A stretch of 64,000 nt of DNA from Candidatus Leptofilum proximum (GTDB taxonomy: Bacteria; Chloroflexota; Anaerolineae; Promineifilales; Promineifilaceae). Where the stretch lies: assembly GCA_016710325.1 (NCBI GenBank), contig JADJXK010000002.1, positions 946,622 to 1,010,621 on the forward strand. Direction: 5' to 3'. Shown in pieces: positions 1,747-64,000 of the stretch. The notes under the pieces were generated by a model, which was not told the DNA's origin, did no database searches, and worked only from the letters and a program-made list of their open reading frames with translations. A program made the translations under genes and the position numbers. Positions within the stretch are counted from its first letter, which is position 1. Each line of letters begins with the position of its first letter.

Positions 1747-1808
1747 GTAATTAGGTAATTGAGTAATTGAGTAATCTAATTACCCAATTACTTAATTACT
1801 CAATTACC
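1747..1808. repeat. Periodic hairpin repeat, GTAATTNN family (8-nt units)
   Basis: GTAATTAG GTAATTGA GTAATTGA GTAAT, loop CTA, then ATTACCCA ATTACTTA ATTACTCA ATTACC. Confidence 0.85.
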
Positions 1809-1891
1809 CCGCTATAAAAAAGCCCAGGAACCGCCGCTCCCAGGCTCTTTCTCAATTAATCTCTTAATTCTCTGCGCCCTCTGTGGCCACC

Positions 1892-3283
1892 TTAAATATG
1901 AATCGCCTCACCCTCCACCGCGTGGGCCGCTTCCATCAGCGCCTCGCTCAGGGTGGGATGGGCGTGCACATTGTGGGCGATCTCTTCGGCCGTCAGCTCC
2001 GCATTACGCGCCAGCGTCAGCTCCGGCAGCAGTTCGGTGACGTCTGGACCAATCATATGTGCCCCCAAAATCTCGCCATACTGCTTGTCGGCGATGATTT
2101 TGACAAAGCCATCCTTCTCGCCCAGCCCCAGCGCCTTGCCGTTAGCAATGAAGGGGAACTGCCCCACGTTGATCTCATAACCCGCTTCTTTGGCCTGGGC
2201 TTCGGTGTAGCCAAAGCTGGCCACCTGGGGCACGCAGTAAGTGGCGCGCGGCATCATGCGATATTCCAGCGGCGTGGTGTGTTTGCCCGCAATGGCATCG
2301 GCAGCCACAATGCCCATCGCCGAGGCAATATGGGCCAGCCGGTATTCCGTGGCCACGTCACCAATGGCGTAGATGTTAGGCACGTTGGTACGCATCTGCT
2401 CATCAATGGCAATGGCCCCGCGATCCGTCAGGTCAACACCCACGTTTTCCAGGCCGATATTTTCCACATTGGGCAGGAAGTTAATCGCCAGCATCACCTT
2501 ATCGCCTTCGAGTTTAGTGCCATCGGCCAGGGCCACCGATACGCTGCCATCGCTCTTCTCGATTTTCTCCACACGGGCATTCAGGTGCAGGTTCACACCC
2601 ATCTTCTTGTACGCTTTTTCCAGGAGATCGCTGACTTCCGGCTCTTCATTGGGCAGGAGGTGGCTCATCATTTCCACAATCGTCACCTCGACGCCGTAGT
2701 TGGCCCACATGTAGGCAAACTCCACGCCAATGACCCCGCCGCCGACGATGATCAGCTTCTCCGGCAAGGATTCAGACAGGATGGCCTCGACATACGAGAT
2801 AATCTGCTCGCCGTCGAACTCGACGCCGGGGATGGTGCGCGGCCGTGCCCCGGTGGCAATGATGATGTTTTTGCCGCTGACGGTCTGCTCCTCGCCGCTG
2901 TTCAGTGTCACCTGGATGGTGTTGGCATCCGTTAGCTTGCCGGTGCCATCAAAGACGTCGATTTTGTTCTTCTTCATGAGGAACTGCACACCCTTCACCA
3001 ACCGCCCCGAGACCTGGCGGCTGCGTTTGAAGGCAACGCTGTAATCCAGCTGCAAATCGGTGAAGGAGAAGCCAAATTCTTTGGCGCGGTGCTGCAAGGT
3101 GTGGGCCACTTCGGCATTTTTGAGCAGCGCTTTGGAAGGAATACAGCCGATGTTGAGGCAAACACCTCCCCAATACTCCCGTTCGATGATGGCCACTTTG
3201 AGCCCATTTTGGGCAGCACGGATGGCGGCCACGTAGCCCCCTGGCCCCGCGCCTAAAACGATAAGATCGTATTGATTGGTCAT
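1892..3283 (-). CDS. lpdA: Dihydrolipoyl dehydrogenase (E3)
   Basis: N-terminus MTNQYDLIVLGAGPGGYVAA (FAD fold), redox CLNIGCIPSK, NAD fold IIVGGGVIGVEFA, and C-terminal HAHPTLSE. Start chosen at the ATG at 3283 rather than the ORF start at 3379. Confidence 0.95.
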   Translation of the reverse strand: MTNQYDLIVLGAGPGGYVAAIRAAQNGLKVAIIEREYWGGVCLNIGCIPSKALLKNAEVAHTLQHRAKEFGFSFTDLQLDYSVAFKRSRQVSGRLVKGVQFLMKKNKIDVFDGTGKLTDANTIQVTLNSGEEQTVSGKNIIIATGARPRTIPGVEFDGEQIISYVEAILSESLPEKLIIVGGGVIGVEFAYMWANYGVEVTIVEMMSHLLPNEEPEVSDLLEKAYKKMGVNLHLNARVEKIEKSDGSVSVALADGTKLEGDKVMLAINFLPNVENIGLENVGVDLTDRGAIAIDEQMRTNVPNIYAIGDVATEYRLAHIASAMGIVAADAIAGKHTTPLEYRMMPRATYCVPQVASFGYTEAQAKEAGYEINVGQFPFIANGKALGLGEKDGFVKIIADKQYGEILGAHMIGPDVTELLPELTLARNAELTAEEIAHNVHAHPTLSEALMEAAHAVEGEAIHI

Positions 3284-3689
3284 AAAAAACTCCGTTTTGG
3301 GTTCAATAAGCCGCGGATTTCGCGGATTTACGCAAATTGGTTTTGCTTGGGCAGCGCCAAGAATTATACCAGCGCCCAATCGTAAATCGTAACTTGTTAA
3401 TCGTCAATGCAGGCAAACGCAGGGGGTGTACCAACAACTTGTCAGGCAAAGCAGTTAACTCACGCAAAGACGCGAAGGCACAAAGGGAATATTTAGCGTC
3501 TTTGCGACTTGGCGTGAAATTTAATGACAACTTGTTCGTAGACCTAAACGCAGGCATTTGCGAACAAGTTTCAAGAGAGATGCCATTCCCGCGTAGGCGG
3601 GAATCCACAGCTGCATCTGAGGACGCTTCCTCCTCGGCATGTTTGTGGTCGGTGAGATGAGTAGATCGCAATAAAACGGCCGCAACGCT

Positions 3690-3719: not shown

Positions 3720-3726
3720 ACGCGCC

Positions 3727-4581: not shown

Positions 4582-4632
4582 TGTGACCAACTGGCCCGCT
4601 GTGCGTCCAAACACAAGGGAAGCAAAAAAGTC

Positions 4633-4670
4633 ATTGAGTAATTGGGTGATTAAGTAGTTACCCAATTACC
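4633..4670. repeat. Short copy of the GTAATTNN-family hairpin
   Basis: GTAATTGGGT ... ACCCAATTAC (10-bp stem) followed by TTTT. It lies downstream of the SH3-protein gene. Confidence 0.75.
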
Positions 4671-4704
4671 TTTTGAATCACCTACAGTTCAAGGAGACCA
4701 TTTC

Positions 4705-5043: not shown

Positions 5044-5048
5044 GAGTC

Positions 5049-5116
5049 AGTAAAAAGTGAGATGTGAACGTGGCCCTTACTTCTCACTTTTTACTTTTTA
5101 CTTTTCACTCTTCTCC
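5049..5116. repeat. Hairpin plus tandem CTTTTNA-type units between convergent genes
   Basis: AGTAAAAAGTGAGA / TCTCACTTTTTACT (14-bp stem), then TTTTTAC TTTTCAC TCTTCTC. It overlaps the last codons of the ABC1 kinase gene. Confidence 0.8.
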
Positions 5117-7039: not shown

Positions 7040-7127
7040 TAGCCATCCAGATTTCATAGGGTTCGGTGTGAAGCGCGAAACGTGAAACGTGATGCCTCTC
7101 TGGTCACGTTTCACGTTTCCCGCATCA
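7040..7127 (-). repeat. GTGAAACGT-family dispersed element, copy 1
   Basis: GAAACGTGAAACGTGA / TCACGTTTCACGTTTC (16-bp stem) plus a conserved flank. Confidence 0.8.
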
Positions 7128-7164
7128 CAACTTTCAACCTCGTGAATTTCCAAAGAACTGCCAA

Positions 7165-7198
7165 TAAAAAAGGCTTCATCCGCAGCGGATGAAGCCTT
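7165..7198 (-). terminator. Intrinsic terminator downstream of tRNA-Glu
   Basis: A perfect 14-bp inverted repeat, AAGGCTTCATCCGC / GCGGATGAAGCCTT, followed on the minus strand by TTTTTTAT. Confidence 0.6.
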
Positions 7199-7202: not shown

Positions 7203-7275
7203 TGCCCCGTAGGGGACTCGAACCCCTGTTTTAGCCTTGAGAGGGCTACGTCCTGGGCCACTAGACGAACGGGGC
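7203..7275 (-). tRNA. tRNA-Glu (anticodon CUC), CCA not encoded
   Basis: Reverse complement is GCCCCGTTCGTCTAGTGGCCCAGGACGTAGCCCTCTCAAGGCTAAAACAGGGGTTCGAGTCCCCTACGGGGCA. It has a 7-bp acceptor stem, a TAGCC/GGCTA anticodon stem with loop CTCTCAA, and a GGTTCGAGTCC T-arm. Confidence 0.9.
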
Positions 7276-11850: not shown

Positions 11851-11943
11851 AATTCGGGTCTTTCGGATTTCGTAGGACTTGGCATGAAACGTGAAGCGTG
11901 AAACGTGATTTTTCCTGGTCACGCTTCACGTTTCACGCATCAC
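11851..11943 (-). repeat. GTGAAACGT-family dispersed element, copy 2
   Basis: GAAACGTGAAGCGTGAAACGTGA ... TCACGCTTCACGTTTCACGC plus the conserved flank CGGATTTCGTAGG. It lies between convergent genes and overlaps the stop codon at 11940. Confidence 0.8.
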
Positions 11944-18769: not shown

Positions 18770-19768
18770 CTATTGGAATTCCAAGGGCTCTGGTTTGTTG
18801 TCCAGGACGGCTTCGATTTTTTCCATGACGTCATCGGTAAGCTGAGGCACCAGGTCCAGTGCCTTCATGTTTTCTTCTACCTGAGACACTTTAGACGCGC
18901 CGGTGATTACCGTGCTGACGTTGGGATTTTTCAAACACCAGGCGATGGCCAGGCGGGGCATCGTTGTGCCCAGCTCTTCGGCAATGGGCACCAGTTCCTT
19001 GACGGATTGCAGCCGCTTTTGCCCTTCTTCGCTTTCCAACATCTGGCGCAGCCATTCGTAGCCGGGCAGGTTCATGCGCGAATCTTCGGGGATGCCGTTG
19101 TTGTACTTGCCGGTGAGCAGGCCAGAGGCCAGCGGCGACCAGATGGTGGTGCCCAGGCCGATGGTGTCGTAGAGACGGCCGTATTCCACCTCAAAGCGAT
19201 AGCGATGAAACATGTGGTACTGCGGCTGCTCCATCGTCGGCGGGATGAGGTTGTACTGCCGCGCCACGCTGTGCGCTTCCATCAGCTGCTGCGCCGACCA
19301 TTCGGACGTGCCCCAGTAAAACACCTTACCCTGCTCGATGAGCGTGTTCATGCTGCGTACCACTTCTTCCATCGGCAATTCCGGGTCCGGGCGATGGCAA
19401 AAGTAAAGGTCCAGGTAATCGACCTGCAAACGCGCCATCGCCTGGTGACACGCCTCGATGATGTGCTTGCGACTGAGACCCAGCTGTGTCGGCTTGGGGT
19501 CTTTGATGCTGCCCCAGCGCACCTTGCTGGAAACGGTATAGCTGTCACGAGACCAACCCAGCTTCTTCAGCGCCTTGCCCATGATCTCTTCCGACTTGCC
19601 ATGGGCATAAATTTCCGCGTTGTCGAAGAAGTTGACGCCAGCATCGTAAGCAGCCTTCATCATGTCTGCCGCCAAATCCACATCGGCCTGGGTGCTAAAG
19701 GTGACCCACGACCCAAATGACAAGGCACTGACCTTCAGGCCAGATTTTCCTAATCTTCGATATTCCAT
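18770..19768 (-). CDS. Aldo/keto reductase (Kv-beta/Tas-like subgroup)
   Basis: [21 protein letters not shown]..., [25 protein letters not shown] and VITGASK. Confidence 0.9.
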
Positions 19769-19855
19769 TTTCTAGCTCCTAATCTGTGGGGCAGCACCAA
19801 ACATGCTGCCAATATCTCTGCCCGTGAGTTTACCGGACGGGGAGAAAAAAATCAC

Positions 19856-19937
19856 CACGAATCGCACGAATAAACGAATGAAACGAATAAAAAATTCGGG
19901 CTATTCGTCCATTCGCCATATTCGTGTTTCGTTTTTC
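19856..19937. repeat. Periodic hairpin repeat (unit about ACGAAT plus 2-3 nt)
   Basis: CACGAAT CGCACGAAT AAACGAAT GAAACGAAT, an A-rich loop, then ATTCGGGCT ATTCGTCC ATTCGCCAT ATTCGTG. Confidence 0.8.
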
Positions 19938-19942
19938 AGCGG

Positions 19943-19971
19943 TTGACGGCCGTTTCCCCCACAGGTAAAAT
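19943..19971 (+). promoter_or_regulatory. Sigma-70-like promoter upstream of the ABC exporter pair
   Basis: TTGACG, a 17-nt spacer, then TAAAAT. An ACGGCCGT copy overlaps the -35 element. Confidence 0.5.
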
Positions 19972-19985
19972 CGCCCCAACCTAGC

Positions 19986-20015
19986 GCCCCGCACCACCCA
20001 TGCGGGGCTTTTTTT
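19986..20015 (+). terminator. Promoter-proximal intrinsic terminator or attenuator
   Basis: An 8-bp GC stem (GCCCCGCA/TGCGGGGC), a 7-nt loop and 7 T residues. It lies about 15-40 nt downstream of the predicted TSS and 21 nt before the ATG at 20037. Confidence 0.6.
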
Positions 20016-20036
20016 GTCGGAATTGGAAGAAAACCC

Positions 20037-21836: not shown

Positions 21837-21837
21837 G

Positions 21838-21909
21838 TGGAGAATAGAGATTGGAGATTGGAGACTAAAAATCTCCAATCTCCAGTCTCCAATCTCTTCC
21901 AATTTCCAC
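21838..21909. repeat. Periodic hairpin repeat, GGAGATT family
   Basis: GGAGAAT AGAGATT GGAGATT GGAGACT, loop AAAA, then ATCTCCA ATCTCCA GTCTCCA ATCTCTT. It fills the gap between the two ABC genes. Confidence 0.85.
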
Positions 21910-21910
21910 T

Positions 21911-23740
21911 ATGAACACATTATCGTATTACTGGCGGCTCATCCGCTTTACGCCCAAATACTATGCCGCCGACATCATCACGATATCGATTCACTTTGCC
22001 GTGACCACCGCACTGGGGCTGATTTTGCGCGCCTTTTTTAATGGGCTCACCGGGGAATCCAGCTTTGCCCTGCCGCTGTGGCCCATCGTTGGGCTGCAAA
22101 TTGCCTACGCCATCATCGCTGCGCTGTCCCAAATGGGCGCAGGCTGGGCCTTTATCAACTTCGAGCACATCTCCTATAACCTGCTTATCCGCAACATGCT
22201 GGCGCGCGTCCTGCAAAGGCCCGGCTCCCGCCCGCTGCCGCAAAACGAGGACGGCACCAGCATGTCCACCGGGCAAGCGATCAGCACTTTTCGCGACGAC
22301 ACCCACGAGCTGCTCATGGCCATCGTGGCCGTGGATGACGTGATTGGCCTGCTCATCAGCGCGGGCATTTCGCTGACAATCATGCTGCAAATCAGCGTGC
22401 CGGTGACGCTGGGCACGTTTGTGCCGCTGTTGATTGTGGTGGGCATTGCCCAGCGGCTGGGGGAGCGGGCCAAGCGGTATCGCAAAGCCAGCCGCCAGGC
22501 CACCAGCCAGGTGACGGGCATGATTGCCGACATGTTCAACAGCACCCAGGCGCTTAAGGTAGCCAACGCCGAAACGCGGGTCATCGACCGCTTCCGCCAG
22601 GTCAACGAGCAGCGCAAGCAGACGATGGTGCGCGACAAGCTGCTCACCCAGCTGGTCGATGCCCTCAGCGCAGGCACCATCGAACTGGGCATGGGCTTGA
22701 TTTTGCTGCTGGCGGCGCGGCAAATGTACCTGGGCACGTTTACCCTGGGTGATTTTGCCCTGTTTGCCGCCTACATCTGGCCCGTCACCCAGCTGTTCCG
22801 CATCTTCAGCCGGATGATTACCGGCTACAAGCAGGCGGGCGTCTCCACACAACGTATGGAAACGATGATGCAGGGCGCGCCGGTGGGCGCGGTTGTTGCG
22901 CCTCAGGAGCTGCACCTGGACGGCAGGCTGCCGCCGCTGCCGTACACGCCGAAAACGGCCGTCCACACCCTACAAAACCTATCCACCAAAAATCTCAACT
23001 TCACCTACCCCAGCAGCGAAAACGGCATTCACGACATCAACTTGTCGCTCAAGGCCGGTCAGTTTGTGGTCATCACCGGGCGCATTGGTGCGGGCAAAAC
23101 AACGCTGCTGAAGGTGCTGCTGGGGCTGCTCCCGGCGGATGCAGGGGAGATTTTGTGGAACGGCCGTCCCGTCACTGATCCCGCCAACTTCATGGCGCCA
23201 CCGCGCGTGGCCACCACCATGCAAATTCCGCGCCTGTTCAGCGAGTCGATTCGGGACAACATTTTGCTGGGCCTGCCGGAAAGTGAGGTGGATGTGCGAG
23301 GGGCGGTGCGGACGGCCGTTTTCGAGCAAGACCTGGCACAAATGGAGCAGGGGCTGGACACCATCGTGGGGCCGCGCGGCCAGCGATTGTCTGGCGGGCA
23401 GGCGCAGCGTGTGGCGGCGGCGCGCATGTTTGTGCGCCAGCCGGAGCTGCTGGTGTTCGATGATTTGTCGAGTGCGCTGGATGTGGAGACGGAGAAGGTT
23501 TTGTGGGAAAGATTGTTTAATAGAGATGGGAGATGGGAGATGGGAGATGGGTTAAATCAATCTCCAATCTCCAATCGCCAATCCCCTACTTGTTTAGTCG
23601 TCACTCACCGTCGCACAGCTTTACGCCGGGCGGATCATGTGGTGGTATTGAAAGACGGCCGTATCGCCGACGAAGGCACGCTGGACGAACTGCTGCTGCG
23701 TTGTGAGGAAATGCAGCAGCTGTGGCAGTTGGAAACTTGA
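21911..23740 (+). CDS. ABC exporter, fused permease/ATPase, subunit 2, carrying an in-frame repeat insertion
   Basis: GRIGAGKTT (Walker A), [12 protein letters not shown] (signature), [12 protein letters not shown] (Walker B/D-loop) and VVTHR (H-loop). The extra segment [21 protein letters not shown] lies between the D-loop helix and the H-loop. Confidence 0.9.
23522..23586. repeat. Periodic hairpin repeat (GGAGATG/ATCTCCA) inside the ABC CDS
   Basis: AGAGATG GGAGATG GGAGATG GGAGATG, loop GGTTAAATCA, then ATCTCCA ATCTCCA ATCGCCA ATCCCCT. It is in frame with no stop codon. Confidence 0.85.
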
Positions 23741-23852
23741 CGGTTTCTTAACGGCCGTTTTTGATTTCTTGTCACCCTCTTTACGCCTGAAGGTGTACAC
23801 TGCACGGGTAAATGAGTCCGCTTACCTATGCGCAACCCAGAAGGTATGAGAA

Positions 23853-24584
23853 ATGATTGGGAATCAATTGACCGTTACTTTGGATGAATCGCGGGAGCTG
23901 CAAAAGACGAAAGTGCTCGTCGTTGATGATGATCACGCCATTCGACGATTTTTACGCACTTCTCTCACCGCCCACGGATATGAAGTGTACACCACCGCCA
24001 CCGGAGAAGATGCCGTCTTGCAAACCATCAACCTCCAACCCGATCTCCTCATTCTGGACCTGGGGCTGCCGGGCATGAACGGCATTGACGTCACCAAAAG
24101 GATTCGGGAATGGTCGCAAATCCCCATCGTGTTCCTGTCGGTGCAAAACCAGGATTCGGACAAGATCGAAGCGCTAGATGCCGGAGCCGACGACTATGTG
24201 ACCAAACCGTTTAGCATCGGGGAATTAACTGCCCGGCTGCGCGTGGCCATACGGCACATGCAGCAAGAAGAGGAACAGCTCGTCTTTGTAAAAGACAAAC
24301 TGCGTGTCGATTTAACGGCGCGTGTGGTGACCTTCGGTGGCCAAGAAGTTCAGCTGACACCTACCGAATATGATCTGCTTAAGGTGTTGGTCCAATACGC
24401 CGGACGGGTACTGACCCACCAGCAGCTGCTCAAAGAAGTGCGCGGCGCCGGGGCGCAAACAGACACCCACCTGCTGCGCGTACACATGAGCAACCTGCGG
24501 CACAAAATTGAAGAGGATCCGACCAATCCTCAGTACATTCTAACCGAGCCAGGGGTAGGCTACCGCTTAAGAATTGATATTTAA
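23853..24584 (+). CDS. kdpE: OmpR-family response regulator, KdpE-like
   Basis: VLVVDDDHAIRRFL...DLLILDLGLPGMNG...ALDAGADDYVTKPFSIGEL plus a winged-helix C-terminus. It is convergent with kdpD, and the stop codons overlap. Confidence 0.85.
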   Translation: MIGNQLTVTLDESRELQKTKVLVVDDDHAIRRFLRTSLTAHGYEVYTTATGEDAVLQTINLQPDLLILDLGLPGMNGIDVTKRIREWSQIPIVFLSVQNQDSDKIEALDAGADDYVTKPFSIGELTARLRVAIRHMQQEEEQLVFVKDKLRVDLTARVVTFGGQEVQLTPTEYDLLKVLVQYAGRVLTHQQLLKEVRGAGAQTDTHLLRVHMSNLRHKIEEDPTNPQYILTEPGVGYRLRIDI

Positions 24585-27274: not shown

Positions 27275-27326
27275 AGAACACAGTTAATTTTCCCGGGTCT
27301 TCAGGAATTCAGGGGGTTTAAAATCC

Positions 27327-27400
27327 GTGATGCGTGAAACGTGACCAGAGAGACATCACGCTTCACGTTTCACGCCAAACCCCACGAAATCCCAAAGAGC
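27327..27400 (+). repeat. GTGAAACGT-family dispersed element, copy 3
   Basis: GTGATGCGTGAAACGTGACCAGAGAGACATCACGCTTCACGTTTCACGCCAAACCCCACGAAATCCCAAAGAGCC. It aligns with the reverse complements of 7040..7127 and 11851..11943. Confidence 0.8.
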
Positions 27401-27410
27401 CATTTTTCCT

Positions 27411-28004
27411 TTAGGAGTCACCAGCCGCCAAAACATCCAGCGCCAGGTTTAAACGAAGGACATGAACCCGCGGCTCACCCAACAGGCCAAAGATGCGTGG
27501 CTCAGTGTATTCGTTCACCAGGTTGCGGACAACGGCCGCATCCATCCCCCTCACCTCAGCCACCCGTCCCACCTGGTACTCCGCCGCCGCCAGGCTGATG
27601 TGCGGGTCCAGGCCGCTGGCGGATGCCGTGACCAGGTCCACCGGAATGGGCAGCGGGTTGGTGGGATCAGCGGTTTGCAAGACCGCGATTCGGGCGGCCA
27701 CCCGTTCTGTCAACGCCGGGTTGCTTGGGGCAGTCGTAGAACCAGCCGAGGCCGCCGCATTGTAGGGCGATGGCTGCGTCAGGGACGGCCGTCCCCAAAA
27801 GTAGGCCGGGTCATCAAACGGCTGGCCGATAAGTTCCGACCCCACAATGACGCCGTCTTGCTCAAGCAGGCTGCCATTGGCCTGGTGAGGAAAGAGGGTT
27901 TGGGCAACGGCCGTTACCAGCAGCGGATAAATCACCCCGGTCAGCAGGGTAAATCCCCCCAAAAACACCAGTGCCCCTCGCAAATAGCGTAATAATAGTC
28001 TCAT
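27411..28004 (-). CDS. kdpC: K+-transporting ATPase subunit C
   Basis: 197 aa with an N-terminal TM segment. SGLDPHIS motif. Positioned after kdpB. Confidence 0.92.
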
Positions 28005-28022
28005 GAGTCACTCTCTTATTAT

Positions 28023-28114
28023 GGTAATCGGTAATCCGTTATCCGTAAGCGGTAATCCATTCACTGATTACCGCTTACCGTTCACCGCTTACCGTTCACC
28101 GTTCACCGCTTACC
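28023..28114. repeat. Periodic hairpin repeat, CGGTAAN family (7-nt units)
   Basis: GGTAATC GGTAATC CGTTATC CGTAAGC GGTAATC, a loop, then ATTACCG CTTACCG TTCACCG CTTACCG TTCACCG TTCACCG CTTACC. It lies between kdpB and kdpC. Confidence 0.85.
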
Positions 28115-28118
28115 TTCC

Positions 28119-30173: not shown

Positions 30174-30183
30174 AAAAACTCAC

Positions 30184-31911: not shown

Positions 31912-31913
31912 CG

Positions 31914-32003
31914 TTAAAACCACTCCGGTTTGACCAGGGCGACAAACAGGTAAATTAACAAGATCAGGGCCAGAACGGCCGAGATTCCATACAACCAGAT
32001 CAT
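31914..32003 (-). CDS. kdpF: K+-transporting ATPase subunit F (29 aa)
   Basis: Hand translation gives MIWLYGISAVLALILLIYLFVALVKPEWF. This is a single TM segment with the KdpF-like YL..AL..PE.F ending, directly upstream of kdpA. It is not in the supplied ORF track because it is under 60 aa. Confidence 0.8.
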   Translation of the reverse strand: MIWLYGISAVLALILLIYLFVALVKPEWF

Positions 32004-32101: not shown

Positions 32102-32166
32102 CAACTGCCTCCTTTCAGCAGAATTGAAATTCGCTTCGAATATAGCGGGAAAGGCATCAAGGAAAG

Positions 32167-32184: not shown

Positions 32185-32199
32185 GATGTAGAGAAAGCA

Positions 32200-38682: not shown

Positions 38683-38709
38683 TAGGGACAAGGCATGCCT
38701 TGTCCCTAC
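38682..38709. terminator. Perfect 28-nt palindrome shared by two convergent genes
   Basis: GTAGGGACAAGGCATGCCTTGTCCCTAC. It overlaps both stop codons (38680-82 and 38706-08). There is no T-run. Confidence 0.45.
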
Positions 38710-41726: not shown

Positions 41727-41784
41727 AAGTGGCAAGTGGCAGGTGAAAACTTACTTGCCACCTGCCACTTGCCACCTGCCACTC
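41727..41784. repeat. Periodic hairpin repeat, GTGGCAN family (7-nt units)
   Basis: GAAGTGG CAAGTGG CAGGTGA, a loop, then CTTGCCA CCTGCCA CTTGCCA CCTGCCA. Confidence 0.85.
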
Positions 41785-42245: not shown

Positions 42246-42339
42246 CCACAGATTTCACAGATGACACAGATTAGCACTTTGCTCCGAGACATCTCTCTGC
42301 TCTCCAAACTCTCTGCGTTCTCTGTGGCCCTCTGTGGCC
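42246..42339. repeat. Periodic inverted repeat (CACAGAT / CTCTGTG units)
   Basis: CCACAGAT TTCACAGA TGACACAGAT ... CTCTCTGC ... TTCTCTGTGG CCCTCTGTGG. Confidence 0.65.
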
Positions 42340-42340
42340 A

Positions 42341-45438: not shown

Positions 45439-47061
45439 ATGACGAAACAACGTCTTTTGATCCTGTTCTTGCTGCTGCTTGTGGCCAGCTTAGCCGCCTG
45501 CACCGGCGATACTTTCAGCGAACCGACCCCCATCCCCCCGCCACCCACCAGCGATGAGGGCGTAAATCAACCCGCCGCCACCAACACACCCATCGCCAAC
45601 GCCGACGCCACCGAACCGGCCGCCGAGCCAACACCCACGCTGGTGGCCACCGCGACCGCCACAGCTGAAGTGATGGCTACGGCCGTTACCGATCCACCCA
45701 TCCAGGCCATCAACAGCCAGCCGCTGCCTGCCAGCAGCCGCAACCTGCTCTTCCTGGCCGACGGCGCTTTCAAGCGCTGGAACCAGGCCAATGGACAAAT
45801 TGAAACCATTGTGCCGGGACCAGATCCTACCGGCCGCGTCCAGGACGAGACGCTGCCCCTGGATCAGTTCATCGGCGATGTAACCGCCTATTCAACAAAC
45901 GCCGACGGCAAGCGAGCCGTGGTGGCGCGCCTGCTCGCTGAGCAGCCCGTTGGCGAGCCGGAGGCCGGTCTGGCGGAAACCAGCCATGAACTGCTGTTTG
46001 TAGACATGGTCAGTGGCGAAATCTGGACCCTGATGCCCCAAGTAGACAACCTGGGCGACTTCCAGCTCTCGCCCGATGCCCAACAGCTGGCCTTTGCCGC
46101 CACTGGCCTGGACGGCATCCCCGACGCGCCGGGCAGTGGCGTTGACTTTGAGAACGGCGAGCCCATCCCGAACAATTTGTATGTGATGGCAACCGGCGGC
46201 GGCAATCCGGCCAGCGTTAACCAGGTGCATGACTGCGCCGGGCGCTGCTTTGCCCCTGTCTGGCACGTCGAGAACAACCTGGTGGCCTTTGCCGATGAGG
46301 CAGCGCTCTGGCTGTACAATATTGCCGCCCGCGAGCCGGAAATGCTGCTGGAAAACACACCCTACGAGGCGGGCATGGAAGACATCGGCCAGATTTCCAT
46401 CTACTCGCCAGTGGCCTGGGCCAGCAACGGCCGTTACCTGCTCGTTTGGGAAGGTCTGTGGGAGGGTGCTAACCGTGCCGTGTTTGATGTGCCCACCGAC
46501 ATCCTGGTTCCGGTGCCCGACTCGTTCGTTTATGCCGAACCGTTCCCCTCGGAAATTAGCTGGATGCCCGACGACCGGCTGCTGGTCTGGCGTTCGCACA
46601 CTCAGTCTGGTGATCTCACTCCCCAGGTGGAGCTGTGGCGTCTGAACCTCGATGCAGCCGAACTAGTTTTGGAAGAATCGGCGGAACTGTCTGATCTGCC
46701 GCTTGGCTTGCTCGGCGGGGTGCACCTGGAAGACGGCCGTTTTGCCTTCGCGCTTAACACTTCCCCCAGCGCCACAACCAACCAGGCGGCTCGCCAGGCT
46801 GCGGGCACCTACCTGCTCACTTCCCTGGCCGAGACGCCGGAGCGGGTAAACAGCCTGCCGCCAGCAGAGGAAGGACGCCTGCAGAGCGAGGTCTACTTTG
46901 CCAAAGACGGCAGTGGCGCCGTTATGGTGCTGGCGCCGCGCCAGTTTGAGACCGCCGTCTTTTACGCCCCCACCGATGGCGACTTTTTGTATGAGGTAAC
47001 GGCCGTTCTCGGCCAAAACCCGCACAACTTCGAGTGGCAGCCGGAGATTGTGCTGCCATAA
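45439..47061 (+). CDS. Hypothetical lipoprotein (beta-propeller-like?)
   Basis: Lipobox LAAC, a PT-rich linker, and a 540-aa ORF with an SD. No motif recognised. Confidence 0.7.
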   Translation: MTKQRLLILFLLLLVASLAACTGDTFSEPTPIPPPPTSDEGVNQPAATNTPIANADATEPAAEPTPTLVATATATAEVMATAVTDPPIQAINSQPLPASSRNLLFLADGAFKRWNQANGQIETIVPGPDPTGRVQDETLPLDQFIGDVTAYSTNADGKRAVVARLLAEQPVGEPEAGLAETSHELLFVDMVSGEIWTLMPQVDNLGDFQLSPDAQQLAFAATGLDGIPDAPGSGVDFENGEPIPNNLYVMATGGGNPASVNQVHDCAGRCFAPVWHVENNLVAFADEAALWLYNIAAREPEMLLENTPYEAGMEDIGQISIYSPVAWASNGRYLLVWEGLWEGANRAVFDVPTDILVPVPDSFVYAEPFPSEISWMPDDRLLVWRSHTQSGDLTPQVELWRLNLDAAELVLEESAELSDLPLGLLGGVHLEDGRFAFALNTSPSATTNQAARQAAGTYLLTSLAETPERVNSLPPAEEGRLQSEVYFAKDGSGAVMVLAPRQFETAVFYAPTDGDFLYEVTAVLGQNPHNFEWQPEIVLP

Positions 47062-47089: not shown

Positions 47090-47149
47090 ATAAGTAAGTG
47101 AGTAATTAGGTAATTGGGTAATTACTCACTTACCCAATTACTCAATTAC
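47090..47149. repeat. Periodic hairpin repeat, GTAATTNN family (8-nt units)
   Basis: AAGTAAGT GAGTAATT AGGTAATT GGGTAATT / ACTCACTT ACCCAATT ACTCAATT AC. Same family as 1747..1808 and 4633..4670. Confidence 0.85.
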
Positions 47150-55817: not shown

Positions 55818-55920
55818 GGGCGAGGCAGGTGGAGAAAAGATCGTTTTGTGTGGCTACGATGTCATCCACCTGCCTCGCCCCTACTTTTCACTTTCCACTT
55901 TTCACTTCTCACTTTCCTCC
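55818..55920. repeat. Hairpin (GGGCGAGGCAGGTGGA stem) followed by tandem CTTTTCA-type heptamers
   Basis: A 16-bp stem (55818-33 / 55865-80), then CTTTTCA CTTTCCA CTTTTCA CTTCTCA CTTTCCT. Confidence 0.8.
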
Positions 55921-56237: not shown

Positions 56238-56247
56238 AAAATAGCCA

Positions 56248-56306
56248 TCAAAGATTTCGCAGATTTACCAGATTTAATCTTCTTAATCTGCGAAATCTCT
56301 GATTTT
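56248..56306. repeat. Periodic hairpin repeat (9-nt units, AGATTTNNN)
   Basis: AGATTTCGC AGATTTACC AGATTTAAT ... AATCTGCGAAATCT. It has a 14-bp stem followed by TTTTT. Confidence 0.8.
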
Positions 56307-56326: not shown

Positions 56327-56710
56327 ATGACTCCACGCTTAAAACTTTGCCTGATTCTATGCCTGCTATGCCTGGCAGCCTGCGGCGGTGGGGCAGAGGC
56401 TGCACCGCCCCCGCCGACCCTTAGCCCGCAGGCGCAGTTGGGCAAGCAAGTTTTCACCCGTGACTGTGGTGCCTGCCACAGCACTTCCCCCGACACGATC
56501 ATTGTTGGCCCCTCATTGGCAGGCGTGGCCAATCGCGCCGCCACCCGCGTGGCGGACCAGGATGCCTACACTTATCTGCTCACCTCCGTCATGCAGCCCG
56601 ACGCTTACCTGGTAGAAGGGTACGAAAACCTCATGCCCAACAACCTCAGCAAACAGCTCACCGGCGAAGAACTCGACGCCGTCATCGCCTATCTGCAAAC
56701 ACTTCAGTAG
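56327..56710 (+). CDS. Class I c-type cytochrome lipoprotein
   Basis: Lipobox LAAC. CGACH heme site. A downstream Met (NLMP) could be the axial ligand. ATG at 56327 preferred over the TTG at 56315. Confidence 0.85.
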   Translation: MTPRLKLCLILCLLCLAACGGGAEAAPPPPTLSPQAQLGKQVFTRDCGACHSTSPDTIIVGPSLAGVANRAATRVADQDAYTYLLTSVMQPDAYLVEGYENLMPNNLSKQLTGEELDAVIAYLQTLQ

Positions 56711-56757
56711 TGGCAGGTTGCAAGTTGCAGGTTGCAAGTTGCAAGTCGCCAGCAACC
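56711..56757. repeat. Tandem heptamer array (TGCAAGT/TGCAGGT)
   Basis: GGCAGGT TGCAAGT TGCAGGT TGCAAGT TGCAAGT CGCCAGC. No clear inverted arm. Confidence 0.8.
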
Positions 56758-56772: not shown

Positions 56773-56852
56773 CCCTATCACCCTATCACCTTGTCACCTT
56801 GTCACCTTGTCACCCCCTCACCCCTTCACCCCGTCACCCCCTCACCCCTTCA
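56773..56852. repeat. Tandem octamer array, 10 units of CCNNNTCA
   Basis: The ten units are: CCCTATCA twice, CCTTGTCA three times, then CCCCCTCA, CCCCTTCA, CCCCGTCA, CCCCCTCA and CCCCTTCA. Confidence 0.9.
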
Positions 56853-56933
56853 ATTCCTGGTTCCACACTACCGGTTGCTGGTACAATTCAACAGCCACAA
56901 ACAACTAGCTACTATGCAAAAGAGGAGAATCCC

Positions 56934-59171
56934 ATGTCCACTGTACTGAAATGGATCGTTCGTATCTTTGGCGTCCTGATTGGCGTGCTGCTGCTTATTT
57001 TTGTCGTGGCCGCCGCCATGCCCGCCAAGGCCGACCCCGACGTAGGCGAAAACCACGGCGCGGGGGCCAGCAGCGTGCAGCCATCGTACACCGGCTTGCA
57101 GCGTGAATTCCCGGCTCTGAACGAAACGGCCGCTAACCCCACCACCGACGCCAAAGCCGAGCTGGGCCGCTTACTCTTCTTCGATCCGGTGCTGTCTAAC
57201 AACAACGACACTGCCTGCGCCACCTGCCACCAGCCGGATTTGGGCTTTGCCGACGGCCGTATCCACGCCGTCGGCCCCACCGGTGTTGAGCAGACGCGCA
57301 ACACCCCCGGCCTGTGGAATGTTGGCTATGCGCAGAATTTGTTCTGGGACGGCCGTCTCGACTCCCTCGAAGCCCAATCCGAAATTCCCCTCACCCACCC
57401 GGATGAAATGGGCGTGGCCGACACCGCTGGCCTGGTCTCCGAAGTGGCGGCCATCGACGAGTACGAAGCGATGTTCAACGCCGCCTTCGATGACGGCGTG
57501 ACGCTGGCCAACATTGAAAACGCCCTGGCGGCGTTCCAGCGCACCCTCATCAGCAACAACAGCCCGTTTGACCAGTACGCCGCGGGCAAGGTGGATGCGC
57601 TGACGCCCAGCCAGCGGCGCGGCCTGGCGCTGTTCCGCTCCGGCGCAACGCGCTGCTTTGAGTGCCACACCGCCCCCACCTTCGCCAGCGACGGCTTCCG
57701 CGTGGTGGGCGTCCCCAGCGACGATCCGGGCCGGGCGGGCGTGGTGGCCGATGGCCTGGTAGGCGCGTTTAAGGTACCGTCGCTGCGCAACGTGGCCCTG
57801 ACGGCGCCATACATGCATGACGGCTCATTGGAAACGCTCGAAGCGGTGGTCAATTTTTACGCTGACGGCGGCGGCCGCCTGCACGGGCAAGAAAATGTGG
57901 ATGTGTTTGTCCAGGGCTTTGAGCTGACTGATCAGGAGCGTTTGGATCTGGTGGCGTTCCTCTACGCCTTAACAGATGAAAGCAATATGCCGGAAATTCC
58001 CACGGCCGTTCCCTCCGGCCTGCCCGTCATTGCACCCACCGATAACCCGGCTCGCGCCGAAGTGGCAGCGCACAACGTCGGTGGTAACAGCGGCATTGAT
58101 TTGGGCGACCGGGAACCAATGACGATTGTGGTGCAAGAAGGGGAGAGTGTGCAAACGGCCGTCGATCGCGCCCGCCCCGGTGACATCATCGAAGTGCCCT
58201 ACGGCATTTATCACGAACGTGTCGTTATCGACATCAACGACATCACCCTGCGCGGCATCCCCAACGAGGCGGGTGAATGGCCCATCTTCGACGGCGAAGG
58301 CGTGCGGACGGAAGCCGTTATCGCCTCTGGCAACAACTTCACCGTGGGCAACCTGCACGTGCGCAACTACACCGACAACGGCGTCCTGGTGGAAGGTGTG
58401 ACCGGCGTGCATTTCCACGACATCTTTGCCGAAAACGTGGGCACTTACGGCGTCTACCCCGTACGCAGCACCGAGGTGTTGATTGAGCGCGTGGAGGTCA
58501 CCGGCGTGGATGATGCCGGGATTTACGCCGGACAGTGCGAAAATGTCATTGTGCGTGACAGCGTGGTGTATGGCAATGTGCTGGGCATCGAGCTGGAAAA
58601 CACGATCGGCGGCGAAATCTACAACAACCACGCCTACGACAACACGGTAGGCATCTTCGTCGTCCTCTTGCCGCAGCTCACTTCAAAAGTATCGGCCAAC
58701 ACGCTAGTGTACAACAACATCGCCGAGGGCAACAACCACGAAAACTTCGCCCCACCTGGAGCAATGGCCGAGATTGCTCCGTCCGGTGTTGGCATCCTGC
58801 TGCTGGCTACAGACAACGCCGAGGTGTATGACAATACCATCCGCGACAACAAGACCACTGGCGTGGCGGTCTTCAGCCTCACCAGCACCGGCGCGTTTGA
58901 TGTAAACGAGGTGGATGTGGGGCCGCTGCCGGAAAACAACTGGATACACGGCAACACCTACGAAAACAACGGCTATGATGCCGATCCATTTGTGAAGGAT
59001 TTAGGGATTCCCACGGCCGATATACTCTGGGACGGCACGGGTATGGACAACCGCTTCAACGAAGAGGGTGCTTCCACCTTCCCGCCGCTGGTGCCAGGTG
59101 ATGGCTGGCCCAGCTTTGTGCGGCGCGGCTACACCAACATCCTCGGCTTTTTGGTGGACCAAATCCTTTAA
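56934..59171 (+). CDS. Di-heme cytochrome c peroxidase (CCP/MauG family) fused to a right-handed parallel beta-helix (NosD/PbH1-like) domain
   Basis: N-terminal TM anchor. CATCH and CFECH heme motifs with PSLRNV...PYMHDG. The C-terminal half has repeated G..V....N..V.DN units. Start at the ATG at 56934 with an AGAGGAG SD, because the ORF start at 56799 lies in the octamer array. Confidence 0.85.
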   Translation: MSTVLKWIVRIFGVLIGVLLLIFVVAAAMPAKADPDVGENHGAGASSVQPSYTGLQREFPALNETAANPTTDAKAELGRLLFFDPVLSNNNDTACATCHQPDLGFADGRIHAVGPTGVEQTRNTPGLWNVGYAQNLFWDGRLDSLEAQSEIPLTHPDEMGVADTAGLVSEVAAIDEYEAMFNAAFDDGVTLANIENALAAFQRTLISNNSPFDQYAAGKVDALTPSQRRGLALFRSGATRCFECHTAPTFASDGFRVVGVPSDDPGRAGVVADGLVGAFKVPSLRNVALTAPYMHDGSLETLEAVVNFYADGGGRLHGQENVDVFVQGFELTDQERLDLVAFLYALTDESNMPEIPTAVPSGLPVIAPTDNPARAEVAAHNVGGNSGIDLGDREPMTIVVQEGESVQTAVDRARPGDIIEVPYGIYHERVVIDINDITLRGIPNEAGEWPIFDGEGVRTEAVIASGNNFTVGNLHVRNYTDNGVLVEGVTGVHFHDIFAENVGTYGVYPVRSTEVLIERVEVTGVDDAGIYAGQCENVIVRDSVVYGNVLGIELENTIGGEIYNNHAYDNTVGIFVVLLPQLTSKVSANTLVYNNIAEGNNHENFAPPGAMAEIAPSGVGILLLATDNAEVYDNTIRDNKTTGVAVFSLTSTGAFDVNEVDVGPLPENNWIHGNTYENNGYDADPFVKDLGIPTADILWDGTGMDNRFNEEGASTFPPLVPGDGWPSFVRRGYTNILGFLVDQIL

Positions 59172-59172: not shown

Positions 59173-59233
59173 CCCGTAGCCGCGGTTTCTTACCGCGTAA
59201 AATCGTGCGGTAAGAAACCGCGGCTACACGGGG
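59173..59233. terminator. Long hairpin between convergent genes
   Basis: CCGTAGCCGCGGTTTCTTACCGC, loop GTAAAATCGT, then GCGGTAAGAAACCGCGGCTACACGG. The stem is about 23 bp with one bulge. Confidence 0.5.
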
Positions 59234-61235: not shown

Positions 61236-62201
61236 ATGAGCAAATTTGCGGCTTTTGAAGAATTTGAAGATTACCAGTATCAAGACAACAGTCGGGAAGC
61301 CCGGCGCAGCCGGACCAAGCCTAACAAAAACAAGCAAGTGCGGAACGGCCGTCCCCAACAAACCATGCAGGATATCCGCGAAATGGATGACGGCATCGAA
61401 ACCTGGGTGCCCAGCTATGCCAGGGCACTCGATCCGCAGCACCACGAGCGGCAGTGGGTCATTGAATCCGTTGGTCCCTTTTACCGTGACCAAATCGTCA
61501 CCGACGTGACCCGTCTGGTGAAAGGGGGCAAAGAGGCCAATGTCTATGCCTGCACCGGCCATCCAGCCACAGGTATAGACCTCATTGCAGCCAAACTGTA
61601 CCGTCCGCGAGAACTGCGCCACCTGAAAAATGACGCCATCTACAAGGCAGGCCGCCAGCTGCGGGATGCAGACGGTAAAGAGATCAAGGGGCGACGTGTC
61701 AAGCTGGCGCTGAGTAAAAAAACCAGCTATGGCAAGTCCGTTGATATTCAATGGTGGATTGGCAATGAATACCGCACCCAAACCCAGTTGTTTGAGGCCG
61801 GAGCCGATGTGCCCAAACCCATTGCCCACCAGGGCAACACCGTCCTGATGGCCTACATTGGCGATGAATATGGCCCGGCACCCACGCTGAGCGAGGTGCG
61901 CCTGCCCCGCGAGGAAGCAGCGCCGCTGTTCCGGCGCATCATGGACAATGTGGCGCTAATGCTGGACAACCACCTCATCCACGGCGACCTGTCGGCCTAT
62001 AACATTTTGTACTGGGATGGCGCAGTGTACCTGATCGACTTCCCGCAGATGGTGGAGGCGCGACACAACCCGCATGCTTACGAGCTGCTGGAGCGGGACA
62101 TCACCCGCGTATGTGATTACTTTGCCGGTTATGGCATTAAAACCAATCCGGTGGCGCTGACGCACAGCCTGTGGGATCCGTATATGGGGCCAGGTGGATA
62201 A
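61236..62201 (+). CDS. RIO-type (RIO1 family) atypical serine protein kinase
   Basis: GGKEANVY (P-loop-like), LIHGDLSAYNIL (catalytic loop), IDFPQ (metal-binding loop) and a basic N-terminal extension. Confidence 0.8.
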   Translation: MSKFAAFEEFEDYQYQDNSREARRSRTKPNKNKQVRNGRPQQTMQDIREMDDGIETWVPSYARALDPQHHERQWVIESVGPFYRDQIVTDVTRLVKGGKEANVYACTGHPATGIDLIAAKLYRPRELRHLKNDAIYKAGRQLRDADGKEIKGRRVKLALSKKTSYGKSVDIQWWIGNEYRTQTQLFEAGADVPKPIAHQGNTVLMAYIGDEYGPAPTLSEVRLPREEAAPLFRRIMDNVALMLDNHLIHGDLSAYNILYWDGAVYLIDFPQMVEARHNPHAYELLERDITRVCDYFAGYGIKTNPVALTHSLWDPYMGPGG

Positions 62202-62206
62202 GACAA

Positions 62207-64000
62207 ATGACACGAGAAATGAGTAACTGGGAGCTGCTGACGCAATATTTACGGCCGTACACCGCCCGTCTCTTAGGGCTGAGCACCCTGCTGGCCGTCA
62301 GTATTGCCCTCCAGCTCTACGGCCCCCAGGTCATTCGTGACTTTTTGGATGCGGCGCAAAGCGGTACGGCCGTACGGCCGTTGGTCACCCTGGGCGCGCT
62401 GTTTTTTGTGGTGACCGTGGCGCAAAAGGCCGTGGAGCTGTGGACGACTTACCTGAGTGAAGACCTGGGTTGGGCGGCCACCAACGGCCTGCGCGCCGAC
62501 CTGGCTGCCCACACCATGCGGCTGGACATGGGTTTCCACAAGCTGCAAACCCCCGGCGAACTCATCGAGCGGATCGATGGCGACGTGAGCAACCTGGCCG
62601 AGTTTTTCTCGCGGCTGGTGATCCGGGTGTTGGGCAACGCGGTGCTGGTCATTGGCATCCTGGTGCTGCTGTTCCGCGAGGATTGGCGCATTGGGCTGGT
62701 GGGGCTGGGCTACGGCCTGCTCACGCTGGGGCTGCTGCAAATCATCCGCAAACCGACGGTGAGCGTCTGGCGCGAGGTGAGCAAGGGATATGCCAGGCTG
62801 CACGGCTACGTTGAGGAACGCATCGGCGGCACGGAAGACATTCGCGCCAATGGCGGCGAGCCGTACGTGTTCCACAAGCTCTACCCGCTGCTGGCCGACG
62901 TGGCCAAAAGCCGCGTCAAGGCCGACGTGATCGGTGGTTACACCTTCAGCAGCAGCTACATGCTGTACGTCCTAGCGATTGTGGTCACGCTGGCGCTGGC
63001 GGGAACGTTTTTCCTGCAAGGGCAGATCACCATTGGCACGCTGTTTCTGCTGGTGGCCTACGTGCGGCTGATGGAATCGCCAATTAAGTACATCCGGCGG
63101 CAAATCAGCGACATGCAGCGCGCCGTGGCCAGCATCGGCCGTATCAACGAGTTTATGCGCCTGGAACCAGATGTGAAGGAGTCCGTAACTGCCAGTTTGC
63201 CCGATGGGGCAACGGCCGTTGCCTTCCACGGTGTCTCGTTTGCCTATAAAGACCGGTTGTCGGTAGTCGGTGAACGGTTATCGGTGAACGGATTGCCGAT
63301 TACGGATAACCGATTACCGCTTACCGATAACGGATTACCGAACGTGCTGCACGATGTCACCTTCACCCTGGAGGCGGGCAAAGTGCTGGGGCTGCTGGGG
63401 CGGACGGGCAGCGGCAAGACGACTCTGACGCGGCTGCTCTTCCGGCTGTACGACGTGGATGCGGGGCGCATCACGCTGGACGGCACCGACCTGCGCCAGG
63501 TGAGCCTGGCCGACGTGCGGCAGCACATCGGCATGGTGACCCAGGACGTGCAGCTGTTTGCCGCCACCGTGCGGGACAATCTGACGCTGTTCCGCCGCTA
63601 CGATCCAGACAAACCACCGATTCCCGACAGTGAGATCGAGGCCGCCCTGCACACGCTGGGTCTGGGCGACTGGCTGGCCAGCCTGCCCGACGGCCTGGAC
63701 ACGGAACTAAAAACGGGCGGGCAGGGGCTGTCGGCGGGGCAGGCGCAGCTGCTGGCTTTTACGCGCGTCTTTTTGCGCAATCCGCAGCTGGTGATTCTGG
63801 ACGAGGCCTCATCTCGGCTGGACCCAGCCACGGAGCAGCTTTTAGAACGAGCGATTGACACGCTGCTGACCGGCCGTACCGCCATCATCATCGCCCACCG
63901 CCTGCACACCGTGCAGCGCGCCGACGACATCTTGATTTTGGAGAACGGCTGCATCCAAGAACACGGCCCCCGCTTACACCTATTCAACAATCCCAATTCC
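62207..64000 (+). CDS. ABC exporter, fused permease/ATPase, paralog of 20037..21836; 3' end beyond the window; carries an in-frame repeat insertion
   Basis: Hand translation from the ATG at 62207 gives [18 protein letters not shown]...[14 protein letters not shown]. The NBD has [31 protein letters not shown] and AHRL. The frame stays open to nt 64000. It is not in the ORF track because no stop lies in the window. Confidence 0.88.
63254..63343. repeat. Periodic repeat, CGGTAAN family, inside the ABC CDS
   Basis: Thirteen successive 7-nt units: GGTTGTC GGTAGTC GGTGAAC GGTTATC GGTGAAC GGATTGC CGATTAC GGATAAC CGATTAC CGCTTAC CGATAAC GGATTAC CGAAC. They translate as [29 protein letters not shown]. 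Confidence 0.85.

Follow-up and report, generated by a model that had tools for sequence, protein, structure and literature searches.

Short-unit hairpin arrays in a Chloroflexota chromosome segment and their variation among relatives

Short tandemly repeated repetitive (STRR) sequences form hairpins in the hupS-hupL spacer of four filamentous cyanobacteria, where transcript stability or translational coupling has been suggested as their role (PMC2670836). In Geobacter metallireducens, 53 opposite-strand pairs of arrays, with 3-5 tandem units each, fall into three classes whose units measure 8 nucleotides (nt; GTTGCTYN), 8-9 nt (TCTCCGTS[Y]) and 7 nt (MTYCTGA). These pairs occupy operon spacers such as proB-proA and moaA-mosC, are absent from G. 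sulfurreducens, and have been read as IHF/HU sites; insertion sequence elements land a set distance away from them (Aklujkar et al. 2009, PMC2700814). The STRR and the Geobacter paired sites have been on record for decades without a mechanism or function. Here we describe hairpin-forming arrays of 7-9-nt units in a 64,000-nt stretch of Candidatus Leptofilum proximum (Chloroflexota; Anaerolineae), contig JADJXK010000002.1, positions 946,622-1,010,621, hereafter the window. On balance, and with moderate confidence, we read them as STRR-like, two-armed hairpin microsatellites that would be maintained by slippage together with copying from arm to arm.

The resemblance to STRR is one of layout. The arrays consist of head-to-tail units of about 7 bp, are dispersed and mainly intergenic, adjoin their own reverse complement, can form hairpins and occur between co-transcribed genes. 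They differ in their Chloroflexota host, in using 8- and 9-nt units as well, and in having one in-frame copy. Mazel and colleagues are said to have given CCCCAGT, TTGGTCA and CAACAGT as the canonical STRR units in 1990; none of the three occurs in tandem in the window. Because host and canonical units differ, the arrays belong with STRR by architecture only. The hairpin form also predominates here, at about 0.2 per kb, compared with one in a 50-kb Nostoc sample (pCC7120alpha), which holds direct heptamer arrays and a single 9-mer hairpin, (GCAGGGGAG)3-loop-(CTCCCCCTG)4. In both hosts an octamer palindrome is hyper-abundant, namely HIP1 (highly iterated palindrome 1) in cyanobacteria and ACGGCCGT here.

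With the Geobacter pairs, taken as a descriptive class only, the arrays share the paired-array architecture, the existence of several families, the position in operon spacers and a purine-rich 5' arm. The Geobacter pairs have other unit sequences, are roughly 15-fold sparser (53 pairs in about 4 Mb), vary in inter-arm distance and come without an orthologous comparison. The TAACTGA repeats of Beggiatoaceae, cyanobacteria and some Bacteroidota are likewise abundant intergenic tandem heptamers, often near upstream of starts and patchily distributed, filamentous bacteria included, but they use a single unit and are nearly all direct, with 169 direct sets and one inverted (MacGregor 2015, PMC4679880); TAACTGA was not found in the window. 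A first-pass annotation of the window had regarded the architecture as unusual. The hupS-hupL hairpins and the Geobacter pairs are precedents for it, so the architecture is already known; what is new is its occurrence in Chloroflexota, its very high density and the copy in a coding region.

The array population of the window

Genes were mapped from open reading frames (ORFs), GC content at third codon positions (GC3) and Pfam/NCBIfam matches, and are ordinary chromosomal genes. Arrays were detected with Tandem Repeats Finder, folded with RNAfold and grouped into families by BLAST among the intergenic regions of the window. Arrays of period 7, 8 or 9 lie at every coordinate given by the first-pass annotation, usually as one array followed 0-25 nt away by an array of the reverse-complement unit. 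That annotation had described all of its sites as hairpins, which holds for 16 of 18, with long hairpins of -24 to -57 kcal/mol; the other two, 55881 and 56711, are partnerless direct arrays, a form present in the window alongside the hairpins. At 3312/3378 and 42246 the arms are indeed paired, but they stand about 40-50 nt apart and do not make tight hairpins. A centre-out scan for stems of at least 14 bp found 20 hairpins in the window, compared with 0-5 (mean about 2.4) in each of 20 dinucleotide-preserving shuffles. Eleven of these 20, with stems of 14-29 bp, have arms of 7-9-nt periodicity, against none in any shuffle, and the tandem-unit hairpins can be taken as real. Assembly artefact was considered and rejected: like structures occur in independent JGI, ENA and NCBI assemblies, short-read contigs included.

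The arrays had been placed in almost every gap. This is an overstatement, because 16 of the 35 intergenic gaps of at least 30 nt hold one; together they amount to about 1.1 kb, roughly 17% of the non-coding DNA. They lie between convergent, divergent and co-directional genes, the last including kdpD/kdpC, kdpC/kdpB and ABC1/ABC2, as had been described for convergent gaps, operon spacers and promoter regions; the copy at 23522 is not intergenic at all and lies inside an ABC-ATPase ORF. In operon spacers the array fills the gap, starting 0-82 nt from the stop codon and ending 10-51 nt from the next start codon.

At least nine unrelated unit sequences occur within the 64 kb. The recurring families that had been proposed are recovered by BLAST, which links 1747 with 47090, 7067 with 11880 and 27326, 21838 with 23522, 28023 with 63254, and 41727 with 56709. 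The period is 7 at most sites, 8 at 1747, 4633, 47090, 19857 and 56773, and 9 at 3312, 42246 and 56247. Pairing between arms is highest near the centre (0.89 and 0.87 for the first two units) and falls outwards to 0.66, 0.49 and 0.31. Loops frequently contain one additional unit, offering alternative registers, and a shift by one unit restores the pairing of variable positions (17 of 17 or 21 of 22 pairs, for example). The mismatching of variable positions between arms noted at first is therefore usually a matter of register, with true periodic mismatches at 23522, 28023 and 63254.

Periodic hairpins are concentrated in this lineage. Clade members yielded 15 over 207 kb, the 64-kb window 11, and all other taxa together 7 over 1,524 kb; periodic arrays are present in every clade relative sampled. 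Across 79 kdpB loci from many phyla (about 1.3 Mb), which served as the comparison set for rarity, clear heptamer hairpins are few (Nitrospirota L010, Gemmatimonadales L049 and one Acidobacteria locus). The hairpins also have a polarity: the 5' arm is purine- or G-rich and the 3' arm C/T-rich in 26 of 30 periodic hairpins, those of other phyla included (L010, L049, L122), and purines account on average for 0.65 of the 5' arm, compared with 0.52 in 180 non-periodic hairpins. The Nostoc plasmid hairpin and Geobacter class 3 likewise have a purine-rich 5' arm. This polarity rule is an unexplained regularity.

Unit turnover at orthologous loci

Syntenic relatives were compared at identities of 93% (L081/L082), 90% (L083, L085, L121), 89% (L120), 87% (L084), 82% (L119) and 60% (L086/L088), with L089 and L093 as outgroups at ABC1/ABC2. 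Relatives of the ABC protein at 82-93% identity are labelled Ca. Promineifilaceae or Ca. Leptofilum, and a metagenome scan with this protein gave one close relative only; the nearest KdpB among species representatives, 83% identical, belongs to an Anaerolineae metagenome-assembled genome.

In the kdpC/kdpB spacer the flanks are conserved while the number of GGTAATC/GATTACC units varies, from 1 + 1 in L082 through 2 + 2 in L088, 4 + 3 in L085 and 4 + 5 in L083 to 5 + 7 in the window, where the CGGTAAN hairpin (28023..28114) fills the spacer. Both arms of this hairpin grow together, and the series shows that units are gained and lost in place, in the two arms jointly.

The ABC1/ABC2 spacer points to the local birth of arrays. 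In the window a GGAGATT/AATCTCC hairpin (21838..21897) fills it, beginning 1 nt past the stop codon and ending 13 nt before the ATG, and L119 has the GGAGATT hairpin as well. L082 and L121 carry instead (AATTACC)n-loop-(GTAATTG)n, which prolongs the ABC1 3' end ..GGCAATTACCTGA, while in L086 and L088 (TAGTTGA)n prolongs their own ABC1 end ..GAGCAGTTGA. The spacer of L083 contains just the minimal palindrome AATTACGTAATT and unrelated palindromes, that of L084 a non-periodic hairpin; in the outgroups L089 and L093, ABC1 and ABC2 overlap and there is no spacer. Because two unrelated unit families each continue the local coding sequence, these arrays were evidently seeded in place, and new arrays can begin from sequence at the 3' end of a gene.

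The copy in the coding region (23522..23586, + strand; GGAGATG x4 / AATCTCC x3-4) is in frame within the ABC-ATPase ORF 21911-23740, between the D-loop (SALDVETE) and the H-loop (TCLVVTHR). At the orthologous site L093 lacks any repeat (36 nt) and L089 has a direct array of heptamers; the paired units are GCGGATT/AATCCGC in L086, GCGGAGT/ACTCCGC in L088, and GGAGATT/AATCTCC in L082 and L119. Relative to this last form, every 5'-arm unit is altered in the window, GGAGATG/AATCTCC, and the 3' arm is not, whereas L120 has GGAGACT/AGTCTCC, with T>C in all 5'-arm units and A>G in all 3'-arm units. In four further relatives (L083, L084, L085 and L121) the site holds direct 8-mers such as CGCAAAGG. 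All four GGAGATT-type lineages keep the segment at exactly 90 nt, as the reading frame demands, and 92% of cells in their alignment pair. In L120 three pairs spaced 7 nt apart have gone from U-A to C-G, an outcome that 5 of 500 shuffles also gave. An identical base change in all units of both arms implies unit turnover with arm-to-arm copying, since independent substitutions cannot produce it; on this comparison a variant base can sweep all units of both arms, and a direct array can acquire or shed its inverted counterpart.

That the in-frame hairpin is specially conserved in sequence was ruled out: its identity is 0.70-0.85, compared with 0.81-0.90 for the gene, so it diverges at the gene's rate or faster. 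What persists at this site is periodicity and complementarity, not sequence. Rickettsia palindromic elements are mobile and of fixed sequence, about 100-150 nt long, and encode an in-frame peptide loop. They share with the window copy the character of an in-frame palindromic repeat, but are not tandem arrays evolving in place.

Changes of unit number, of unit and of presence or absence are thus all seen among syntenic loci, as the comparison proposed in the first-pass annotation was meant to reveal, and the hairpins are therefore not ordinary conserved terminators. That annotation had also suggested a dedicated mechanism of generation or propagation. Generation is supported by units that continue the 3' end of a gene and change in concert; for a dedicated enzyme, or a partner of the RAYT type (transposase associated with repetitive extragenic palindromes, REP), the DNA covered here held no candidate.

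The process we envisage would start from a short palindromic seed whose arms are lengthened by tandem duplication of a 7-9-nt unit. Replication slippage inside each arm would then change the number of units, and the loops with one extra unit suggest that hairpins pair in shifted register on single-stranded DNA. The arms would be kept complementary, and variants spread, by quasipalindrome correction, in which template switching or mismatch correction acts between the arms. The rate of this process would be strongly raised in the present clade, and arrays would persist where they break neither a reading frame nor a ribosome-binding site, as they do between stop codon and ribosome-binding site, in gaps that hold promoters and at one protein loop that tolerates them. 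If the intercistronic RNA hairpin has a role, it would be secondary.

Several points weigh against such microsatellite turnover as the whole account. Slippage and template switching are inferred from the comparison, not observed. Copies at unrelated loci (the GTGAAAC family, 28023/63254 and an AGATTT hairpin) are not explained by a purely in-situ process. Long persistence could mean selection for structure; some hairpin is present at ABC1/ABC2 in all eight relatives that have the spacer, and kdpC/kdpB retains the GGTAATC unit throughout the clade. Neutral slippage does not predict the polarity rule, and like unit types occur in distant taxa: CACAGAT units in the distant relative L093, GGTAATT units in the unrelated metagenome contig L117, and the TTCTGA type in both Nitrospirota and Geobacter.

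The clade offers an unusually dense repeat population with many sequenced relatives, and with it a well-resolved case of a puzzle of long standing. It contains one locus that can be traced from a 1 + 1-unit seed to a 5 + 7-unit hairpin, a unit change sweeping both arms, and a coding copy of fixed length, and the process of birth and growth is thereby directly testable. There is also a practical hazard, in that such arrays may frameshift genes, mislead predictions of terminators and small RNAs, and break short-read assemblies.

Spread between loci and candidate roles of the hairpins

Some copies have evidently moved. Three GTGAAAC-family copies occur in the window: a hairpin some 110 nt long next to tRNA-Glu in a divergent gap (7040..7160), only the central part of which is periodic (heptamer core 7067-7129); a copy with 17 of 17 pairs in a convergent gap (11859..11943), which has its left flank and loop in common with the first; and a copy inverted relative to the first in the kdpD/kdpC spacer (27290..27420, core 27326-27375, loop CCAGAGAGACA). 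The loop TGCCTCTCTGG, which is inverted in 27326, is common to all three, as are tens of non-periodic flanking bases (about 50 nt). Conserved non-periodic parts are found in this family only. Elsewhere, the 3' arm at 63254 and the 5' arm at 28023 have variant units in equal order and are 97% identical over 30 nt, and L121 has the AGATTT hairpin, flanks included, at a locus that is not orthologous. The ACGAAT hairpin has an orthologue in L084. Since unrelated loci have loops, flanks or unit order in common, some copies do spread; turnover in place and copying to new sites thus both occur.

These copies are the ground for a view in which the hairpins are non-autonomous elements, akin to REPINs (REP doublets forming hairpins) or to miniature inverted-repeat transposable elements, moved in trans by a RAYT or an IS200/IS605-type hairpin-recognising transposase encoded elsewhere, with periodicity a property of the element and not of local slippage. 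The shared GTGAAAC loop, TG(C/T)CTCTCTGG, with flanks (GGATTTCGTgGGgTTtGG ...) and one copy inverted, fits this view, as do the 28023/63254 match and the AGATTT copy. So does the kdpD/kdpC copy, which stands as an insert of some 115 nt when compared with L083 and is absent from L082, L083, L085 and L088; its edges, AATTTTCC ... ATTTTTCC, where L083 has one GTTTCC, form a TTTTCC-like direct repeat against that empty site and resemble a target-site duplication. No duplication is evident at 7040, and we know of no related insertion sequence. An insert at kdpB/kdpA is found in L082 alone, and L083 and L085 have a 26-nt insert nested in the 3' arm of the kdpC/kdpB hairpin.

We nevertheless consider mobilisation in trans rather unlikely as the general explanation. 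The orthologous unit-number series and the concerted changes need turnover in place, two unrelated unit families continue the adjacent coding sequence, and most family members have the unit alone in common, not the ends. No Y1_Tnp or other transposase domain was found in any ORF of the window, nor a transposase among the genes called in about 150 kb of the relatives' DNA. A REPIN proper pairs two inverted copies of one fixed palindrome, about 20 nt long, at a constant spacing, and each family is linked to a RAYT gene (Bertels and Rainey 2011, PMC3116915). The window hairpins resemble them as short, extragenic, hairpin-forming dispersed repeats in several families, some copies of which match beyond the periodic core, but their arms are tandem arrays whose unit number varies among copies and orthologues, and no fixed doublet is found.

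Two observations on other repeats in the relatives may be added. The 26-nt piece, GTACGCGAAGCGGTCGCGCAGCGACA, is itself a small stem-loop (L083 16096-16121; L085 7977-8002), and the unit numbers flanking it differ. Elhai and colleagues reportedly described, in 2008, very small mobile elements in cyanobacteria. The relatives also contain palindromic families that lack periodicity, namely ACCCTCACCCC..GGGAGGG (about 80 nt), a type written GTCATTCC..GGAATGAC, and AGGTGACAGTCAYTTT, at L083 298-378, 6563-6643 and 9926-9990, L001 10540-10630 and 19085-19142, and L084 6805-6838 and 8075-8107; they occupy similar spacers, sometimes in place of a periodic hairpin.

A terminator role, also put forward at first for the convergent gaps, is poorly supported. 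The hairpins resemble intrinsic terminators in being stable stem-loops, some of them in convergent gaps, but they have no U-tract, have longer stems with more AT, and show the reverse of the polarity seen in the canonical terminator-like hairpins of these genomes; canonical terminators are present separately in the window, for example at 19986-20008. The 15 nt downstream of each site are not T-rich, and in the 13.5 kb from 19000 to 32500 one of five periodic hairpins fits the terminator pattern of a GC-rich stem, a loop of 3-8 nt and an immediate U-tract, and it does so on the antisense strand. As a general explanation termination was rejected, the operon, promoter and coding positions adding to the missing U-tracts and the reverse polarity.

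Selection could act on the RNA hairpin, intercistronic or at 3' ends, in other ways, by stabilising the upstream mRNA, by attenuation or by translational uncoupling, with any stable stem serving and its sequence free to drift. Consistent with this are the co-directional positions exactly between stop and start codons, the presence of a hairpin, in at least four unrelated sequences, in all eight relatives with the ABC1/ABC2 spacer, the retention of the kdpC/kdpB hairpin across the clade and the compensatory change that preserves pairing. A similar role was suggested for the cyanobacterial STRR hairpins (PMC2670836). G-U pairs, too, number 29 in the sense fold against 14 in the antisense fold, but this excess is small, weak and inconsistent between loci. 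We regard such selection as an unlikely origin of the arrays, which mostly have no U-tract, have a G-rich 5' arm, the reverse of the terminator-like hairpins here, lie also in divergent promoter gaps and within a coding region, and differ in presence between close relatives at kdpD/kdpC and kdpB/kdpA. An Rfam 15 scan of the window at the gathering threshold matched tRNA-Glu (7203-7275) only.

Two other candidates were set aside. CRISPR, riboswitch or small-RNA identity was rejected, given no Rfam match and no spacer architecture. Heptamers as stops in all three frames were rejected as a general explanation: the 5' arm closes all frames in 7 of 32 hairpins and none in 14 of 32.

Alternatively, the arrays might be double-stranded binding sites for a nucleoid or regulatory protein. 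Their architecture equals that of the Geobacter sites, for which the authors proposed IHF/HU (PMC2700814), similar unit types occur in distant taxa, and the polarity rule belongs to the duplex and not to a strand. Yet at least nine unrelated unit sequences occur in 64 kb, and at one orthologous site the unit varies freely. A period of 7 nt is out of step with the helical repeat of DNA, and we know of no candidate protein. We therefore hold this to be highly improbable, and retain microsatellite turnover in place, with some spread of copies, as the best account.

A HIP1-like octamer and the individual sites

The octamer ACGGCCGT occurs 127 times in the window, about 2 per kb, compared with 1.7 expected from composition; the commonest other 8-mer palindrome has 9 copies. 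Its copies lie in coding DNA in every frame, the median distance between them being 331 nt, and the A..T flanks are present at 65% of the CGGCCG sites in the window. Its density is 1.5-2.4 per kb in clade relatives (L086 and L088 included), 0.8 in L089 and about 0-0.2 in other taxa, and it is abundant in L001, L081-L088, L109 and L119-L121. HIP1 itself occurs once in the window. The octamer resembles cyanobacterial HIP1 but has another sequence and a Chloroflexota host; it is not among the alternate HIPs of Elhai 2015, and literature searches returned primers and unrelated matches but no description of it.

The joint occurrence of a HIP-like octamer and STRR-like arrays is only a lead, because the data hold a single phylogenetic event. 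It is conceivable, if quite doubtful, that one lineage-specific repair or replication activity drives the abundance of ACGGCCGT and also heptamer-hairpin production, arm homogenisation and the purine-rich 5' polarity; a candidate would be a system for mismatch or very-short-patch correction that is directed by methylation or by hairpins. If so, the pairing of HIP1-like and STRR-like traits would have arisen independently in filamentous Chloroflexota, and two cyanobacterial repeat classes would be products of one mechanism, identifiable by comparing genomes that have both. The co-occurrence provides a second, independent lineage in which ideas on HIP1 and STRR can be tested.

The remaining sites illustrate the range of forms. 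Three belong to the GTAATTNN octamers: a hairpin of about 4 + 4 units with 21 of 22 pairs (1747..1809), related to that at 47090 and situated between the stop of a lipoamide dehydrogenase gene and the start of a methyltransferase gene, both co-directional on the - strand; a short hairpin between co-directional + strand genes (4633..4672); and a hairpin around the palindrome GTAATTAC, downstream of gene 45439-47061 (47090..47149). At 5049..5109 an AGTRAAA / CTTTTTA heptamer hairpin in a convergent gap has its 3' arm prolonged as a direct array, and at 19857..19925 an ACGAATNN hairpin lies in the divergent AKR/ABC1 promoter region, with an orthologue of fewer units in L084. A GTGGCAR / YTGCCAC hairpin with 17 of 17 pairs begins at a stop codon between co-directional - strand genes (41727..41783), and a second CGGTAAN hairpin has about 4 + 7 units (63254..63341). 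The nonamer hairpin AGATTTNNN (56247..56303) stands 11 nt upstream of a cytochrome c gene and has a homologue at a different locus in L121.

The widely spaced pairs are CGCGGATTT x2 (3312-3329) with AATCGTA x4.4 (3378-3408), about 48 nt apart and a weak member (3312..3408), and CACAGATNN x3 with CTCTGTGGCC x2 (42246..42340), the unit family also seen in L093. Direct-only arrays are the single arm ACTTTTC x4.7 (55883..55915), AGTTGCA x5.4 (56709..56746), which is homologous to the 3' arm at 41727 and inverted, and an octamer array of about nine units, CCCTGTCA / TCACCCCC, upstream of a MauG-like gene (56773..56852). The octamers of this last array (CCCTGTCA > TCACCCCC) overlap the 5' extension of the MauG-like/beta-helix ORF 56799-59171, whose true start codon is probably downstream of the array.

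Several non-periodic structures lie nearby. A perfect 14-bp palindrome, AAGGCTTCATCCGC a GCGGATGAAGCCTT, at 7170-7198 adjoins tRNA-Glu(CTC) (7203-7275, - strand) beside the GTGAAAC element. Two perfect non-periodic hairpins in convergent gaps, at 38682-38709 (14 bp, loopless, GTAGGGACAAGGCA|TGCCTTGTCCCTAC) and 59176-59227 (21 bp, GTAGCCGCGGTTTCTTACCGC), are likely ordinary bidirectional terminators or protein-binding sites. Upstream of ABC1, a promoter-like TTGACG-17-TAAAAT (19943-19971) precedes a canonical hairpin, GC-rich and bearing a T-run, at 19986-20008. The ABC1 ATG comes soon after, at 20037, and 19943-20036 looks like a leader or attenuator. Also upstream of ABC1, the palindrome AGATTGGTTCAATTT n AAATTGAAYCAATCT is conserved in L119 (7991-8021) and L121 (8045-8077) and may be an operator.

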